Below, in pieces: positions 38,121 through 53,700 of a stretch of DNA of 64,000 nucleotides (position 1 is its first letter; each line of letters opens with the position of its first letter). Made by a program: the position numbers and the translations under genes. Under the pieces are notes generated by a model. That model was not told the origin of the DNA and ran no database searches. It saw only the letters and a program-made list of their open reading frames with translations. The DNA comes from Bdellovibrionota bacterium (GTDB taxonomy: Bacteria; Bdellovibrionota; UBA1018; CAIPTA01; JAALKR01): the NCBI GenBank assembly GCA_965207455.1, contig CBDBMJ010000001.1, forward strand, positions 1,408,001 to 1,472,000. Direction: 5' to 3'.

Positions 38121-39704
38121 TTACATACGAAAAATTCCATATTCAACGGGGTCTAGGGGTCGGTTGTCCAAAGACATGGCTAGGGCTAGGGCTAGTTTTT
38201 CCCGGGTTTGAGCAGGGTCGATAATACCGTCGTCCCAAAGCTTAGCCGTACTATTATAAGGGCTACTTTCCTTTTCGTATGTGGCAAGTATCTTGCTCTC
38301 TAAAGCCGCCTTCTCTTTCTTCCCACCTGAATATACGGAACCTAATACTTGGGCTGCCTGCTCTCCCCCCATTACAGAAATCTTTGCATTGGGCCACATC
38401 CAAAGCAATCGAGGTGAATAAGCCCGACCACACATACCGTAATTGCCAGCACCAAAGGAACCACCAATGATCACTGTAAACTTAGGAACCCTGGCATTGG
38501 CCACAGCCATCACCATCTTTGCTCCATCCTTTGCAATTCCACCATGCTCTGCTTTTCCTCCCACCATAAAGCCCGTAATATTTTGAAGAAATACGAGAGG
38601 AATCCCCCGCTGGTTGCAAATCTCAATAAAGTGGGTAGCCTTTAATGCACTCTCGGAAAACAACACTCCATTGTTGCTAATGATCCCAACGGGATAACCC
38701 TCGATATGGGCAAAACCACAAACCACGGTGGTGCCATAGTAGGACTTAAATTCATGGAAGCGACTCCCATCTACTAAGCGAGCAATGACCTCTTTGGAGT
38801 CATAGGGCTTGCGCAAATCCTTGGGTACAATTCCATAGAGTTCATTGGCTGGATATAACGGTTCTTCCGGTTCCTCCCGTTTATATTCTGCGGGGCTTGC
38901 CTTTCCTAAACCATTAACGATCGTGCGTAGAATTTCCAGTGCGTGGGAATCACTTTGAGCATAATAATCCGCAACACCACTGCGCTTACAATGGGTATCA
39001 GCTCCACCCAATTCCTCAGCACTAATCTCCTCTCCTGTAGCTGCTTTTACCAGTGGAGGACCCGCTAGAAAAATTGTAGCTTGGTTTTTCACCATAATGG
39101 TTTCATCGCTCATGGCAGGAATATAGGCCCCTCCTGCGGTACAACTTCCCATTACCGATGCAATCTGAGGAATCCCCTTGGCACTCATCTGCGCTTGATT
39201 ATAGAAGATGCGTCCAAAGTGTTCTTTGTCGGGAAATACCTCACTTTGTAGGGGCAGGTAGGCTCCTCCAGAGTCAATAAGATAAATACAGGGCAGGCGG
39301 TTTTCAAAAGCAATTTCTTGGGCACGGAGGTGTTTTTTCACTGTCATGGGAAAATACGTTCCTCCCTTTACAGTGGCATCGTTGGCAAGAATCATCACCT
39401 CTCGACCACTAACTCGTCCCACACCCGACACAATTCCCGCACAAGGCGCATCTCCCCCATACATTCCATACCCAGCCAAAGATGATAGCTCTAAAAAGGG
39501 TGTGCCCGGATCAATTAGCTTTTCAATGCGATCCCGTACAAATAACTTTCCCCGATCCTCATGTTTTTTTCGAGCACCTGGACTCCCTCCCTGCTCCACC
39601 TCTCGCATTTTCTCTTGTAATCCCGAAACTAATTCCTGATTGTGTCGACAGTTCTCTTGAAAAGCCGCTCCCTTGGTCTGCACTTTCGATTCAATAACGG
39701 ACAT
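38121..39704 (-). CDS. liuB: Methylcrotonyl-CoA carboxylase beta (carboxyltransferase) subunit
   Basis: [32 protein letters not shown] and [12 protein letters not shown]. Confidence 0.93.
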
Positions 39705-46902: not shown

Positions 46903-48345
46903 TTATAACGAAACAAAAGGAATAGCATTTCCTATCTTGCCTTCCTCATCTCCATAATTTATTGTATTGCCCAAACCCAATTGACCGCTAGAATTATTAC
47001 CCCAACACTTCACCCTTCTATTGCTAAAAGAAGCACAGGTATGCCCGGAACCATTATTACCTCCAGAACTAATAGACCTTATTGCATAGAGAACACCACC
47101 TGATCCCAGCAAACGAGCATATGGAAGATTGTCAGCCATTTCATTAGCATCATCACCACGAGAATTCGTATCTCCCAGCCCCAATTCTCCATTACCGTTG
47201 TCGCCCCAACACTTAACAAGGTCGCTATAAGAAACTGCACAGACGTGCCGAAATCCTAAACTTAATTCCTTTGTAAGAAGCAAACCTGATGATCCTTCGA
47301 GTCCTAAGTGAACAAATCGAAGGTAATTTCCCATTTCATTGACTCCGTCACCACGGGAATCCACATCTCCCTGCCCTAGCTGCCCATAATAATTGATACC
47401 CCAACACTTCACTCCTCCGACCTCAATCAATGCACAAGTAAAACTGGAACCAGAAAAAATACCTGCTACCTTAAACTTTGTGCCAGAAGCATTAGTTCCT
47501 AGACTAATAAAATCAAGGTTATCTCCCATTTCATTGGATCCATCGCCACGAGAATCCGTATCTCCTTGCCCCAGTTGCCCATAATTGTTGGACCCCCAGC
47601 ATTTTGCTTTTCCATTCTCAAACAATGCGCAGGTATGGTAAGATCCGGCAGAAATTGCTGTAGCAATAAGCGGCTGTTCATTTTCCATACCTAAGTCAAC
47701 AGAGGGAAGGTTGTTTCCCATTTCATTGTCTCCGTCGCCACGAGGATCCAAATCTCCCAGCCCCAACTGACCAAATCGATTATATCCCCAGCACTTCACT
47801 CTTCCATTCTCTGATAATGCGCAGACATGACTCCCTCCCACAGAAACTGCTTTAGGAATAAACGGCAATCCAGTTTCCGTACCATCTTCCGTACCTAAAT
47901 CAACAGAGGGAAGATTACTTCCCATTTCATTGGCTTCATCGCCACGAGAGCTCATATCTCCCAACCCAAGTTGTCCGTAAGTATTGTCCCCCCAGCACTT
48001 GATCTCCCCCAATTCTAAAAGAACACAAACGATTCCTCCAACAGAAATTGCCTTTACTGTGCTAGATCCAAGGTCAATAAATTGGAGATTATTTCCCATT
48101 TCATTGGCCGAAGCACCACGAGGATTCGTATCTCCCTGGCCCAGTCGTCCATCTCCATTTATTCCCCAGCACTTCACTTTTCCATTCTCAAACAATGCAC
48201 AAGAATACCCCGGACCAGCAGCTACTTCTTCAATAAGCATGTGAAAAGATTTTCCGGTATCAGTCTTGCCGCTACAATTAATCAGCAATATTAGCGATAC
48301 AATAAAAATTGATAAAAGCGTAGACTTTGTTAATAATTTATTCAT
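46903..48345 (-). CDS. 7-bladed RCC1-like repeat lipoprotein
   Basis: Lipobox-like LINC; seven C.L.....KCWG...GQLG.GD...RGD..NEMG.NL repeats. Confidence 0.87.
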   Translation of the reverse strand: MNKLLTKSTLLSIFIVSLILLINCSGKTDTGKSFHMLIEEVAAGPGYSCALFENGKVKCWGINGDGRLGQGDTNPRGASANEMGNNLQFIDLGSSTVKAISVGGIVCVLLELGEIKCWGDNTYGQLGLGDMSSRGDEANEMGSNLPSVDLGTEDGTETGLPFIPKAVSVGGSHVCALSENGRVKCWGYNRFGQLGLGDLDPRGDGDNEMGNNLPSVDLGMENEQPLIATAISAGSYHTCALFENGKAKCWGSNNYGQLGQGDTDSRGDGSNEMGDNLDFISLGTNASGTKFKVAGIFSGSSFTCALIEVGGVKCWGINYYGQLGQGDVDSRGDGVNEMGNYLRFVHLGLEGSSGLLLTKELSLGFRHVCAVSYSDLVKCWGDNGNGELGLGDTNSRGDDANEMADNLPYARLLGSGGVLYAIRSISSGGNNGSGHTCASFSNRRVKCWGNNSSGQLGLGNTINYGDEEGKIGNAIPFVSL

Positions 48346-48389: not shown

Positions 48390-49349
48390 CTATTTCAAAT
48401 AGGAATCAGTCCTACAGTTTTTACTAAAAATAGATGGCACACCTTCAGAACAAGTCAAAGTAAGATTTCCTGGTGTACCAGTAAAAATGCTCGATGAACT
48501 TGTCACTTGATTTATATCCCAACCAGTTACATTAAGATCAGTTAAGGCAGAAGCACCATTAAACATAGAGCTCATATATTCAACTTTAGAAGTATTAAAA
48601 TAAGATAAATCAAGCGACGTCAAACCAGAGGCACCATAAAACATAAAGCTCATGCTTGTTATTTTAGAAGTATCAAAACTAGATAAATCAAGCGACGTCA
48701 AGCCAAAAGTACCATAAAACATAAGGCTCATATTGATAACGTTAGAAGTATTAAAGCTAGATAAATCAAGCGACGTCAAACCAGAGGCATCACGAAACAT
48801 TCCAGTCATAGTTGTTATTTTAGAAGTATCAAAACCAGAAAATTCAATTTCTTCCAGACTAATTGTCGAATTAAACATGTTCTGCGCTTCTGTCACTTCC
48901 GACGTGTCTGTATCGCCTGCAACAAAGCGAATTAAATTTGAGCAACCCTGAAAAGCACTTTGCAAGCTTTTCCAACCTAGCCTACCTAAGCTCTGAACCT
49001 CTATTAGTTTATCTTTATCCCCTCCATTATAAAAAGACCATGCTGGCAAAGTTCCAGAAATTTTAATGGTGTAGTCTCCAGACTCAGCATAGGTATGAGT
49101 AATATTATGGGTTGTTACTGCTTCTGATGAGCCGTCTCCCCAGTTCACAGTAAAATTATATGTAGAGTTAGAAACTAGTGGAAGAGTCACATTTCGGTTT
49201 CCATTCCCAAATCCAATCGTACCTACTCGCCAAACTGATATAAAACTACTAGGGGTGCTTGACTCTTCGTCGCTACAGCTAATAAAGAAAGGGATGCTTA
49301 AAGAAATAAAAAGTAATAAAAACGCACGACTTAACAATAATTGTTTCAT
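48390..49349 (-). CDS. BspA/DUF285-type 25-residue-repeat surface lipoprotein with a PKD-like domain
   Basis: Start MKQLL (GGAGG RBS), FISC lipobox, VNWGDG...HTY, and repeats FDTSKITSMSFMFYGASGLTSLDLS. Confidence 0.87.
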   Translation of the reverse strand: MKQLLLSRAFLLLFISLSIPFFISCSDEESSTPSSFISVWRVGTIGFGNGNRNVTLPLVSNSTYNFTVNWGDGSSEAVTTHNITHTYAESGDYTIKISGTLPAWSFYNGGDKDKLIEVQSLGRLGWKSLQSAFQGCSNLIRFVAGDTDTSEVTEAQNMFNSTISLEEIEFSGFDTSKITTMTGMFRDASGLTSLDLSSFNTSNVINMSLMFYGTFGLTSLDLSSFDTSKITSMSFMFYGASGLTSLDLSYFNTSKVEYMSSMFNGASALTDLNVTGWDINQVTSSSSIFTGTPGNLTLTCSEGVPSIFSKNCRTDSYLK

Positions 49350-49581
49350 ATCCCCTCCATGGAGAAAGCCCAAACAATTAATCTTTGAACTAATTAACAC
49401 ACTCGAATTAAAATAATAACAGTAAAGGGCGACTTAGATCAACAGTGCTAGGGAAAAAAAACAAACTAACGCATCACAATAATTCTAAAAGTTCTTCAAC
49501 ACGCATTAAATACACGATTACTCTTGATATTTTTACTTCAATTGTGTTGACTAGAGACCACATACAAGCCTGGTTTTTTTA

Positions 49582-49671
49582 GGAGAGATGCTAGAGTGGC
49601 CGATTAGGCACGCTTGGAAAGCGTGTAGACGGGCAACCGTCTCGAGGGTTCGAATCCCTCTCTCTCCGCCA
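49582..49671 (+). tRNA. tRNA-Ser(GGA)
   Basis: Acceptor stem GGAGAGA/TCTCTCC-GCCA, anticodon arm CACGC-TTGGAAA-GCGTG, long variable arm, T-arm GAGGGTTCGAATCCCTC. Confidence 0.97.
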
Positions 49672-50350
49672 AAAACTAACGCTTCGTATCTAAAGGTGAG
49701 TATTCTCCAACAAATGCGATAGCAAGCAGGGATTCGAACACGGAGCAATGACCCGCGCTGGTTCCGAGTGAGCGAGGAACTAGTGAGGGGAAAAAAATCC
49801 TGGAAGATTTTTTAAATTGCGTAGGAGAGCCTACGCAGGGAAATCCCCTGGAAGGGATTTCGTGTAGTAGGTCGAGCCCTCTCTCTCCGCCAAAAACTAA
49901 CGCTTCGTATCTAAAGGTGAGTATTCTCCAACAAATGCGACAGCAAGCAGGGATTCGAACACGGAGCAATGACCCGCGCTGGTTCCGAGTGAGCGAGGAA
50001 TTAGTGAGGGGAAAAAAATCATTGAGGATTTTTTGAATTGCGTAGGGGAGCCTACGCAGGGAAATCCCTTGGAGGGGATTTCGTGTAGTAGGTCGAGCCC
50101 TCTCTCTCCGCCAAAAACTAACGCTTCGTATCTAAAGGTGAGTATTCTCCAACAAATGCGATAGCAAGCAGGGATTCGAACACGGAGCAATGACCCGCGC
50201 TGGTTCCGAGTGAGCGAGGGAACTAGTGAGGGGGAAAAAAATCATTGAGTCCTCTCTCTCCGCCATTTTTTGAATTGCGTAGGGGAGCCTACGCAGGGAA
50301 ATCCCTTGGAGGGGATTTCGTATAGTAGGTCGAGTCCTCTCTCTCCGCCA
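49672..50350 (+). repeat. tRNA-linked tandem repeat array: 221 + 221 + 237 bp units, each ending in the tRNA-Ser 3' end
   Basis: Units 49672-49892, 49893-50113 and 50114-50350 are near-identical. tRNA 3'-end copies at 49877-49892, 50098-50113, 50250-50265 and 50335-50350. Confidence 0.95.
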
Positions 50351-50489
50351 AAACAAGGTGCGTCGCTTTTAAAAAGAAATATAATCAAATAAACACAACA
50401 AAACCGGGAGGTTCGGAAAATTAAGTCAAATAGAATATATTTTTGTATTCTAAGCTGAAAACAGCTTACATCAGGGCAAATCAGGGCCT

Positions 50490-51422
50490 TTGATTATTTT
50501 GTATCTTTTCCCTGATCATTCAAAGCAAAATCATACGACTGGAATAGTCAGACGTTTCTTGGGTGTTATTGAATCCATCCCCGTCAATCGTGATGTTGAA
50601 GGCATTGTCGAAATGATACTAGATGCTCGACAAGAGTGTTCCAAGCCACTGACGAAAAATCGACTATTTGCTTGGCATGCAGCACTCTTTCCAACAGGTT
50701 ATTCCAACATGCGCCGCATTTCTGCTGGCTGTTGGCGCACAATTGATGCTGGACCGGTGCAGGTTGTTTCAGGATCCATAGGTCGAGAGAAGCTACACTT
50801 TGAAGCACCAAGTGCCGAGAGGCTGGAAGCAGAAATGGCCATCTTCTTGACCTGGTTTAATAAACAAAATGATATTGATCCTGTTCTCAAAACAGGCATT
50901 GCCCATCTTTGGTTTGTAACTGTTCATCCCTTTGAAGATGGTAATGGTCGCATTGCTCGAGCGATTAGCCACATGGCACTGGCACGATCGGATGGAACAT
51001 CTGATCAATTTTACAGCCTATCCAGTCAGATTGAGTCGGAACGTAAAAACTACTACAAGCAGTTAGAAAGAACCCAGCGTAGCACACCAGAAATCACAGG
51101 CTGGTTGGAATGGTTTTTGGACTACCTCGGACGAACCATATCTAGTGCCGAGAAAACACTGGGCAAGGTTCTATTCAAAGCCCAACTTTGGGAGAAGATG
51201 AATCAAACCCCCGTCAACAAAAGGCAGCGCTTTATCATCAACCGCATGTTGGAAGATGATTTTAAAGGCTATATGAACACATCCAAATATGCCAAGCTGA
51301 CCAAGTGCTCAAGCGACACAGCTTTGCGAGATATTCAGGAATTAAAGATGCATGGTACTTTCATTCAAAATCTCACTGGAGGGCGCAGCACCAGTTACCG
51401 GCTGACTGACAAGGTAACGTAA
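50490..51422 (+). pseudogene. Fic family protein (DUF4172-Fic-HTH type), probably 5'-truncated
   Basis: Intact HPFEDGNGRIARA motif and C-terminal TALRDIQEL...GGRSTSY HTH. Similarity seems to begin only near RRFLG...RDVEGIVEM; weak TTG start with no RBS. Confidence 0.6.
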
Positions 51423-51527: not shown

Positions 51528-51592
51528 ACGATGCCTGATGAATTTTATGCGCAATGCGTCTTTATAGTGAAAACCAAGCAAGGGAGAGAAAA

Positions 51593-52042
51593 ATGAAGAA
51601 GATAAAGGTATTATTAATAATTGCTCTTACGGCTCTTTTTACATGTGGTTTTGCACTAAAACCCACAGGTGAAGACACTGGCTGCGGTCCTGGTGTGGAA
51701 ACAAAACCTCATCCCAATGGTGGTGGTGCAGTGGCAGTAACAGCTACTGTCCATGAAACTGCATATGTGGGGCAAAACGCTAAAGTTTGCGACAGTGCGG
51801 AGGTTTCTGGCAATGCAAAGATTTCTGGCTATGCGAAGGTTTCTGGCAATGCAAAGATTTCTGGCAATGCGCAGGTTTCTGACTATGCGCAGGTTTATGA
51901 CCATGCGTGGGTTTTTGGCAGCGCAAAAGTTTTTGGCGATGCGAGAGTTTTTGGCAGAGCGAAAGTTTTTAGCGCTGCGAGAATTTTTGGCAGTGCGAGA
52001 ATTTTTGGCTTTAAAGAGATATCAAGTGGCAGATATGAGTAG
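51593..52042 (+). CDS. Secreted hexapeptide-repeat (left-handed beta-helix-like) protein, paralog 1
   Basis: Signal peptide MKKIKVLLII..., HPNGGG cap, 13 [VI]x[GD]xAx-type units counted from VCDSA. Confidence 0.85.
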   Translation: MKKIKVLLIIALTALFTCGFALKPTGEDTGCGPGVETKPHPNGGGAVAVTATVHETAYVGQNAKVCDSAEVSGNAKISGYAKVSGNAKISGNAQVSDYAQVYDHAWVFGSAKVFGDARVFGRAKVFSAARIFGSARIFGFKEISSGRYE

Positions 52043-52112
52043 AAAAAGATTTGCCTAGATTCAACTGGTTAACTTGATGCAGTAAAATTAAACAAAAACA
52101 AAGGAGAAAAAA

Positions 52113-52811
52113 ATGAAGAAGATAAAGGTATTATTAATAGTTGCTCTTGCAGCTCTTTTCACAAGTGGTTTTGTAAAACCCACAGGTGAAGACACCGGCT
52201 GTGGTCTTGGTGTGAAAACAAAACCTCATCCCAATGGTGGTGGCGCAGTGGCAGTAACAGCTACTGTCGCAAAAACCGCATATGTGGGGCAAAACGCTAA
52301 AGTTTGTGACAGTGCGAGGGTTTCTGGCGGTGCGCAGGTTTATGGCAATGCAAAGGTTTTTGACAATGCGAAGGTTCATGGAAGAGCGCAGGTTTATGGC
52401 AATGCGAAGGTTCATAGAAGAGCGAGGGTTTTTGACGATGCGGAAGTTTCTGGCAATGCAAAGATTTCTGGCAATGCGCAGGTTTCTGGCTATGCGAAGG
52501 TTTCTGACAATGCGAAGGTTCATGGAAGAGCGAGGGTTTCTGACAATGCGAAGGTTCATGGAAGAGCGAGGGTTTCTGGCGGTGCGAAGGTTTCTGGCTA
52601 TGCGAAGATTTCTGGCAATGCGCAGGTTTCTGACTATGCGCAGGTTTATGACCATGCGTGGGTTTTTGGCAGCGCAAAAGTTTTTGGCGATGCGAGAGTT
52701 TTTGGCTATGCGAAAGTTTTTGGCGATGCGAGAGTTTTTGGCAGAGCGAAAGTTTTTAGCGCTGCGAGAATTTTTGGCTTTAAAGAGATATCAAGTGGCA
52801 GATATGAGTAG
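52113..52811 (+). CDS. Secreted hexapeptide-repeat protein, paralog 2
   Basis: Same architecture with 27 units; AAGGAG RBS. Confidence 0.85.
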   Translation: MKKIKVLLIVALAALFTSGFVKPTGEDTGCGLGVKTKPHPNGGGAVAVTATVAKTAYVGQNAKVCDSARVSGGAQVYGNAKVFDNAKVHGRAQVYGNAKVHRRARVFDDAEVSGNAKISGNAQVSGYAKVSDNAKVHGRARVSDNAKVHGRARVSGGAKVSGYAKISGNAQVSDYAQVYDHAWVFGSAKVFGDARVFGYAKVFGDARVFGRAKVFSAARIFGFKEISSGRYE

Positions 52812-52881
52812 AAAAAGATTTGCCTAGATTCAACTGGTTAACTTGATGCAGTAAAATTAAACAAAAACAAAGGAGAAAAAA

Positions 52882-53700
52882 ATGAAGAAGATAAAGGTAT
52901 TATTAATAATTGCTCTTGCAGCTCTTTTTACATGTGGTTTTGCACTAAAACCCACAGGTGAAGACACTGGCTGCGGTCCTGGTGTGGAAACAAAACCTCA
53001 TCCCAATGGTGGTGGTGCAGTGGCAGTAACAGCTACTGTCCATGAAACTGCATATGTGGGGCAAAACGCTAAAGTTTGCGACAGTGCGAGGGTTTCTGGA
53101 AAGGCAGAAATTTATGGATATGCAAAGGTTTCTGGCAATGCAAAGATTTCTGGCAATGCGCAGGTTTCTGGCGGTGCGAGGGTTTTTGACGATGCGGAAG
53201 TTTCTGGCAATGCAAAGATTTCTGGCAATGCGCAGGTTTCTGACAATGCGTGGGTTTATGATAAAGCGCAGGTTTATGGCTATGCAGAGGTTTCTGGCTA
53301 TGCGAAGGTTTCTGACAATGCGAAGGTTCATGGAAGAGCGAGGGTTTCTGACAATGCGAAGGTTTCTGGCTATGCGAAGGTTCATGGAAGAGCGAGGGTT
53401 TCTGACAATGCGAAGGTTTCTGGCTATGCGAAGGTTTCTGACAATGCGTGGATTTCTGACAATGCGACAGTTATTGGCAGTGCGTATGTTCATGGCTATG
53501 CAGAGGTTTCTGGCTATGCGAAGGTTTCTGGCAATGCGAAGGTTTATGGACATGCAAAGGTTTATGGACATGCAAAGGTTTATGGACATGCAAAGGTTAG
53601 TGGGTTAATGCAAATTATTGATAATATGAAGTTGTGTGGACTTGTGTGGTCTGTTCGCCATGTGGTGGTTTGTGGTAATAGACCACTTTCTGGAGAATGA
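52882..53700 (+). CDS. Secreted hexapeptide-repeat protein, paralog 3
   Basis: Same architecture with about 31 units and a distinct Cys-containing C-terminus. Confidence 0.85.
   Translation: MKKIKVLLIIALAALFTCGFALKPTGEDTGCGPGVETKPHPNGGGAVAVTATVHETAYVGQNAKVCDSARVSGKAEIYGYAKVSGNAKISGNAQVSGGARVFDDAEVSGNAKISGNAQVSDNAWVYDKAQVYGYAEVSGYAKVSDNAKVHGRARVSDNAKVSGYAKVHGRARVSDNAKVSGYAKVSDNAWISDNATVIGSAYVHGYAEVSGYAKVSGNAKVYGHAKVYGHAKVYGHAKVSGLMQIIDNMKLCGLVWSVRHVVVCGNRPLSGE

Follow-up and report, generated by a model that had tools for sequence, protein, structure and literature searches.

The array examined here raises the question of what multiplies the end of a tRNA gene together with a backward copy of it. 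In the window, by which we mean the whole 64,000-nt stretch of Bdellovibrionota DNA that was analysed, the gene for tRNA-Ser(GGA) is followed, from the base right after its CCA, by three tandem units (Table 1). TRF, run on the window, reported a period of 221 with 3.1 copies and 93% matches. Each unit closes with the end of the tRNA (its last 16, 16, and 15 nt, respectively) and carries AGGGATTCGAAC, the exact reverse complement of a segment of the tRNA T-arm, for which ~3e-5 chance matches are expected per 680 nt. The unit lengths, CCA-closing ends, and antisense segments given in the original prediction were confirmed, as were its three hairpins, the A-tract hairpin being intact in units 1 and 2 only. 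Units 1 and 2 differ at nine positions, and the predicted concentration of such differences in hairpin loops was borne out (6/9). Unit 3 owes its greater length to an additional copy of 15 nt of the tRNA end inside its A-tract hairpin; this copy may be a misplaced template switch or an assembly error. The fold of unit 1 scored z = -3.2. A GGA triplet is present in the P5 loop of all three units and in the P3 loop of unit 1 only. The proposal that the last hairpin loop echoes the serine anticodon did not hold, as a TTGGA(A) loop also occurs in units behind tRNA-Gln and tRNA-Met.

Table 1. Coordinates of the features of the tRNA-Ser(GGA) array in the window.
Feature	Position	Strand	Basis or remark
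tRNA-Ser(GGA), host gene	49582-49671	+	ARAGORN
T-arm segment of tRNA-Ser(GGA), target of the antisense arm	49648-49659	+	Sequence comparison
Unit 1	49672-49892	+	221 nt; tRNA-end copy 49877-49892
Unit 1 leader, 56 nt, without terminator-like hairpin	49672-49727	+	Unit alignment
Unit 1 antisense T-arm, reverse complement of tRNA positions 53-64	49728-49739	+	Host-matched across loci
Unit 1 structured core	49740-49872	+	Folding, covariation
Unit 1 hairpin P2	Within core, 49740-49872	+	Folding
Unit 1 A-tract hairpin P3	49792-49813	+	
Unit 1 lineage-specific hairpin	49818-49837	+	
Unit 1 helix P4	49829-49834 with 49867-49872	+	Encloses P5
Unit 1 GGA-loop hairpin P5	49840-49861	+	
Unit 1 forward copy: degenerate T-loop from position 55, then 16 nt of tRNA end with CCA	49872-49892	+	
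Unit 2	49893-50113	+	221 nt; antisense arm 49949-49960; tRNA-end copy 50098-50113
Unit 3	50114-50350	+	237 nt; antisense arm 50170-50181; tRNA-end copy 50336-50350
Unit 3, additional 15-nt tRNA-end copy within the P3 hairpin	50251-50265	+	

In sequencing run X1, which may be the source sample of the window, the unitig over the leader had a depth of 74 versus 24-29 on the unique flanks, which fits about three copies. In runs X2-X4, coverage at the array was essentially that of the tRNA alone. A promoter and terminator scan at the array remained at chance level. An Rfam scan of the window at the gathering score returned no match, a weak blank given that the clear tRNA-Ser(GGA) was also missed.

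The genome from which the window comes (G000, 94.7% complete) carries the same core, of ~165 nt, behind 10 of its 33 tRNA genes, namely Ser(GGA), Ser(TGA), Ser(GCT), Met(CAT), Arg(CCT), Pro(GGG), Glu, Trp, Gln, and Pro(TGG); this count includes Trp with one partial 5′ unit, Pro(TGG) with 3′-half remnants, and Gln, where the array is displaced by an island. These ten loci hold 1-4 units each. Complete units close with the 3′ end of their own host, so that the suggested search of other tRNA loci for locus-matched ends was successful. The antisense arm also tracks the host, reading TTTGAAC for Met (A57) and GGGCTCGAAC for Arg, and matches it over 10-14 nt, while the forward copy has a more degenerate T-loop than the arm. 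A TTCRAATCC T-loop was found in 9/10 hosts versus 6/23 non-hosts (Fisher p = 0.0015). Leaders are common to some of these loci, and whole units have therefore moved. Core identity was 94-99% within a locus (3 pairs) versus a mean of 87% between loci, and the tandem copies thus look like local amplification, not the product of repeated integration that they had been taken for. The description of repeated integration at the 3′ end in the original prediction is too simple, since the junctions lie in the T-loop.

A BLAST-type search of 40 relatives yielded only three weak hits, one of them spurious, and a covariance model was therefore needed. The model was built from 16 units, a biased seed in which eight rows came from G000 and six were found via conserved motifs. 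It matched 46/127 genomes of the class and 25/151 of the phylum. The core was not found in the one genome of the same family (88% complete), and its distribution across the class is patchy. A pattern scan of genomes gave six hits, of which one lay inside a coding region and another had its T-arm masked; tRNA-linked pattern hits were present in records titled Bacteriovoracaceae, Bdellovibrionales, and Desulfuromusa. The four pattern hits of a viral scan were not tRNA-linked. Searching 100 of the 109 fetched loci produced 116 matches, of which 86 have an upstream tRNA within the fetched DNA and 30 do not, many of the latter lying at contig ends or having a tRNA-like tail.

In the consensus fold, a closing helix P1, formed by the antisense arm and the forward copy, is stacked on helix P4 (GCCTAC and GTAGGT), which encloses hairpin P5; P2 and P3 are further hairpins. 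Double changes were observed in 26/40 pairs of the seed alignment, where 94% of the cells pair versus 32-49% in slid controls, and in 38/40 pairs of the alignment of all 116 matches, itself fitted to the model. The covariance model proposed in the original prediction thus revealed structural covariation. The hairpin formed by TGCGTAGG, also described there, is present but lineage-specific, the conserved partner of GCCTAC in relatives being the GTAGGT that immediately precedes the forward copy. At the foot of the fold lie conserved motifs (GTAG-type and GAA). The GGA triplet occurs in the P3 loop of 87/116 matches and in the P5 region of 84/116, CAGGATG being the commonest form; since the GAA anchor and the GGA loops belonged to the model or the filter, their frequencies are partly circular. 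Each unit is a gene-free folded element with a backward copy of the host tRNA's T-arm end on one side and a forward copy on the other.

The array is real and is not a local duplication. An origin by simple local duplication or assembly error, to which the putative extra 15-nt copy in unit 3 might point, has a probability close to nil and is ruled out for the array as a whole by the occurrence of the same core at ten loci of the source genome and in 45 other class genomes, by the covariation, and by a unitig depth of about three copies.

The junctions were compared at 72 loci from 30 genomes and 27 anticodon types, obtained by dropping two matches without the GAA anchor and keeping the first unit per locus. 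At positions 57-65, the arm matched its own host at 8.11/9 nt versus 5.30 ± 0.13 after permutation (reached in 0/5000 permutations); arm positions 54-56 were fixed by the filter. The forward copy matched its own host at 8.18/9 nt (permuted, 5.25). T54 was kept in 0/72 forward copies. A 2-nt register between the two copies was observed in 63/72 loci, with the arm extending to G53 and the forward copy starting from T55 in 21 and the arm extending to T54 and the copy starting from C56 in 42 (off-class, 9/72); these classes follow core subfamilies and kin, so that p = 1e-10 overstates the effect. The antisense match mostly stops at positions 62-66, the T-stem boundary (49/72), and the acceptor part is matched (6-7/7 nt) in 46/72 loci. 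At six loci, pairing is lost at positions 57-58 and kept at 54-56. At 71/72 loci, pairing of the arm is stronger with the host than with the unit's own copy, partly by construction, as T54 is missing in the copy.

The spacing from CCA to the arm is 53-80 nt in 42/72 loci, under 30 nt in 6, and over 100 nt in 24. In many relatives, the arm is preceded by a terminator-like hairpin, and an inverted repeat was detected in 17/42 leaders of 50-85 nt. The backward copy crosses the CCA and 8 nt of flank in 7/64 loci, compared with 1/4032 cross-locus control pairs, and three loci (L045, L047, and L096) contain near-perfect palindromes of about 44-53 bp starting from T54. These long palindromes and backward copies into the flank indicate that the arm can be copied from local DNA. 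Inverted repeats in leaders >100 nt were left out of the target-copy counts. Long inverted and long direct copies were negatively associated by the Fisher test (p = 0.01) and not by rank correlation (p = 0.28), and this comparison was not used as evidence.

Among the leaders of 100-220 nt, 21/22 contain an inverted repeat, mostly from the first base past the CCA, around a second structured insert (L032, L038, L046, L078, L079, L081, L095, L101, L128, and others), which is possibly a second tRNA-end element. A tmRNA also acts as a host (ARAGORN call in L184), and tmRNA-like tails were found in L087 and L056.

The design resembles that of the tRNA-linked repeats (TLRs) of E. coli, as the original prediction had recognised. 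According to PMC8144298, which cites Egan and Landy 1978 and Rudd 1999, E. coli has 22 such units at ten loci, including the tyrT repeats with RttR/rtT (RF00391) and rrA/rrB/rrF, and TLRs, known since 1978, were without a known function by 2021. They are likewise gene-free structured units right behind a tRNA, with 1-5 per locus, closing in the 3′ end of that tRNA. The antisense arm proved to be no specific feature of our array, as we found it 46-62 nt past the CCA (9-10/12 nt) in the K-12 TLRs at tyrT, tyrV, proK, serX, and two lys loci; these arms were read from the unit sequences, the scripted best hit at tyrV, proK, and serX being the same arm in the second unit. The K-12 arms are mostly of a GAGAA variant, as in six relatives' loci, and the K-12 forward copies are without T54. 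In the arg units, the arm lies at +23, and the short lys units have no clear arm (7/12). In contrast, the core is unrelated at a detectable level, with no match of the core covariance model R1 to K-12 at E <= 1 under strict filters. The tRNA-end identity block is 15-16 nt here versus 18-19 nt in E. coli, and the unit length is 221 nt versus about 100-180. Judged by sequence, the Bdellovibrionota element has the layout of a TLR with a different core and falls outside the RtT sequence family (RF00391).

Our literature search found no description of this core family or of an antisense arm in TLRs, although Rudd 1999 or supplements may have one. This analysis adds the measured junction rules and the antisense arm common to E. 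coli TLRs; as such, the array is a further example of a widespread kind. The rules hold across many tRNAs and comprise a host-matched arm, no T54, a fixed register, a matching T-loop bias, and occasional long palindromes. Since the same arm occurs in several K-12 TLRs, the origin and function of TLRs are directly testable in a laboratory strain.

Folding predicts two partners for the antisense arm, either the host T-arm or the forward copy of the unit itself. In a calculation for unmodified RNA without tertiary contacts, the cross-paired fold (arm on the host T-arm, tRNA 5′ end on the distal copy) lay 4-13 kcal/mol below the separate folds at 7/7 loci of the source genome. The pairing with the tRNA put forward in the original prediction is thus supported by the model, in which the arm is predicted to prefer the host T-arm over the unit's own copy.

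We tentatively explain the units as non-autonomous selfish elements of the TLR kind that spread by T-arm pairing, have their ends re-copied by template switching, and multiply in place by slippage, and we give this explanation a little less than an even chance of being correct. The antisense arm would pair with the T-arm and in this way find tRNA genes, similar T-loops guiding moves to other tRNAs. During replication, template switching would renew both ends from the sequence of the new host. The nascent strand would fold back downstream of the CCA, copy the tRNA end backwards, and re-enter at the antisense arm, which would produce both the long palindromes and the host-matched arm. Tandem units closing in CCA could arise when the strand slips back from the forward copy onto the T-loop of the host, multiplication in place occurring via slippage between the tRNA-end copies, and in single-stranded DNA the cross-paired state would align the two direct copies. 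The inner copy in unit 3, if real, would represent a misplaced switch. Read-through transcription might incidentally yield CCA-ended RNAs of ~220 nt, as has been reported for the TLRs of E. coli.

Fold-back copying is known from quasi-palindrome template switching, which perfects palindromes and yields direct-inverted-direct arrangements. This process, together with tandem inversion duplication, resembles the proposed route in its fold-back and outcome, but it is known as a sporadic route of mutation, whereas the element here is conserved and has a fixed T-loop junction. The source genome has no reverse transcriptase, Y1 transposase, or stand-alone GIY-YIG gene, which suits a route that relies on host machinery. 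Several observations count against the selfish reading. The fixed register of 2 nt and the absence of T54 from 72/72 forward copies look enzyme-like, and neither a circle nor an empty site nor a copy-number variant was observed. The GGA in the P3 loop of 87/116 matches and the terminator-like hairpins of many relatives also weigh against it. The fold and several unpaired bases are kept across the phylum and into the Desulfuromusa record, which suggests a function with a protein or RNA, not passive copying. Furthermore, the leaders in the source genome travel with the core, so that only the last 10-14 nt are adapted, which selection could also achieve.

Alternatively, the units could be kept as a functional RNA, co-transcribed with the tRNA and cut at the CCA copy, to serve as a CsrA-binding sRNA coupled to growth and/or as a folding switch in which the antisense arm, by briefly holding the T-arm of the pre-tRNA, delays maturation. 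We regard this as somewhat unlikely. It is consistent with the covariation in every helix, and the GGA-bearing P3 loop and P5 region resemble the CsrA-binding consensus; however, units 2 and 3 have no GGA in P3, and the GGA and GAA frequencies are partly circular. CsrB/RsmZ-type sRNAs likewise display GGA in hairpin loops, but the present units have just two such loops, tied to tRNA ends, and CsrA binding by them is putative. While csrA is present in the source genome, it occurs in 75/75 good class genomes and the element in 27/75, and it therefore does not discriminate. The six loci that lose pairing at 57-58 keep positions 54-56, which the host tRNA alone offers, and the antisense match mostly stops at the T-stem boundary, both in favour of a functional RNA; against it, the host tRNAs vary freely (27 anticodon types), and the arrays have ragged ends or are cut off by IS-like DNA. 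PMC8144298 describes transcription, processing, and binding of CsrA and Hfq for RrA/B/F of E. coli, these three rRNA-linked TLRs being the ones for which CsrA binding is demonstrated, whereas the 19 tRNA-operon TLRs have a CsrA-binder score below 0.01. If RNA pairing matters, the arm would represent a new layer of tRNA maturation control. The register would instead be accounted for by a dedicated trans-acting enzyme (HUH, GIY-YIG, or other) with specificity for the core. It would make cuts staggered by 2 nt in the TΨC motif and link the core to each of the two strands of the end lying downstream; replication would then leave the tRNA end, the backward copy, the core, and the forward copy. We consider such an enzyme unlikely. 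The two register classes (21 and 42 loci, with 9/72 off-class) point to it, as do the conserved motifs (GTAG-type and GAA) at the foot of the fold and the use of a tmRNA as host (L184), but the p-value of the register is overstated, and a coaxial P4-P1 stack explains the register as well. No gene family recurs as a neighbour in L030-L138, and the four viral pattern hits are without a tRNA. A co-occurring nuclease or recombinase, sought as the original prediction had advised, did not emerge as a mobilising enzyme in the source genome, the class genomes, or the sampled GIY-YIG loci. Searches of the source genome for RVT_1 (reverse transcriptase) and for a Y1 transposase gave no match, and the sole GIY-YIG match lies within a UvrC-sized, 610-aa frame. 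Y1_Tnp was found in 30/46 genomes with the element and 55/81 without it (hand count); the corresponding GIY-YIG counts are uninformative because UvrC is near-universal. The core was present at 0/20 short or mid-length GIY-YIG loci, sampled among the 150 matches listed, and one of these has a tRNA ~530 nt upstream, but without the core.

IS200/IS605 elements choose their target by base pairing of a guide at the hairpin foot, and a base-paired choice of target is likewise proposed for the element here. With these and the REP/REPIN repeats of RAYT (TnpA-REP), it shares the form of a short non-autonomous hairpin repeat with a GTAG motif beside the hairpin, but it differs in being tied strictly to tRNA or tmRNA ends and in having its ends copied from the host; unlike REPIN/RAYT, it is not associated with a Y1 transposase in the source genome or across the class. 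Another parallel, which speaks for the enzyme, is the Ssn system (GIY-YIG, cd10448), whose nucleases cut single-stranded DNA near NTS/SRM hairpin repeats (PMC11893778); the hairpin repeats here could likewise be cut by a small trans-acting nuclease, although PMC11893778 makes no mention of tRNA and no core lies beside the 20 sampled GIY-YIG genes. If an enzyme is behind the element, it would constitute a new guided insertion system. An extension of the enzyme hypothesis, which we consider improbable, is that TLRs from E. coli to Bdellovibrionota are the traces of one class of mobile element directed at the universal TΨC motif, inserted with a 2-nt stagger by an arm-guided enzyme through a dumbbell single-stranded DNA intermediate, whose stem would be the host tRNA's own end, with the T-loop opened and then capped with the folded core. 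If true, it would describe a reprogrammable, base-pair-guided insertion system. Islands that use the T-loop might also have left integrase attachment sites, of which the units would be remnants or decoys, but this is very improbable. In its favour, the source genome has nine tyrosine recombinases, an integrase island separates tRNA-Gln from its array, and gene-bearing cassettes at tRNA-Pro(TGG) close in the core 3′ half. However, the array at Gln already existed when the island split it by means of 14 nt of the tRNA end, and attachment remnants explain neither the host-matched backward copy nor one core at 27 anticodon types. A retron or other retroelement was rejected, as RVT_1 has no match in the source genome.

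Other features of the element-bearing genomes were recorded alongside. Array ends in the source genome are often partial units or IS-like DNA. At Ser(TGA) and Ser(GCT) (G000:C3:316800-316870 and 370450-370510), 17-19 nt of leader past the last unit lead into one and the same IS-like sequence, and another IS-like end cuts the Arg(CCT) array (G000:C1:1189500-1189780). The Gln island measures 10.7 kb (G000:C1:1227653-1239018) and lies between tRNA-Gln and its three-unit array; its translations read as a tyrosine integrase, a methylase-like ORF, TIR-like ORFs, and IS3-like ORFs. Behind tRNA-Pro(TGG) (G000:C3:34600-40660, minus strand) are cassettes with small ORFs (100, 95, and 206 aa) that have a common N-terminal signal-like stretch. 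Two of the cassettes close in the core 3′ half and the tRNA end (copies at 39308 and 35900), and a transposase-like ORF pair lies between them. The locus looks like a cassette array built on the core element. In an element-bearing genome, an 84-aa GIY-YIG ORF is located ~530 nt behind tRNA-Arg(CCT), with no core between them (L166:197-1040).

In the window, no mobilising enzyme is encoded near the array, in agreement with the original prediction, and the neighbours are DUF285, RCC1-like, Fic, and solenoid-repeat genes. These neighbours and the near-identical leaders also led us to reject a CRISPR-like or integron-like array. Upstream of tRNA-Ser(GGA), on the minus strand, are an RCC1-like repeat gene (46903-48345) and a DUF285 (BspA-like) gene with a 78-bp repeat (48390-49400). 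Right behind the array is a Fic-domain ORF with a TTG start, possibly 5′-truncated (50490-51422), and run X1 contains a diverged second version of 50417-50567. Further downstream, three tandem paralogous genes (51554-53700) have a common signal-like start and 18-bp repeats, and the one of them that was scanned matches YdcK beta-solenoid and hexapeptide models.
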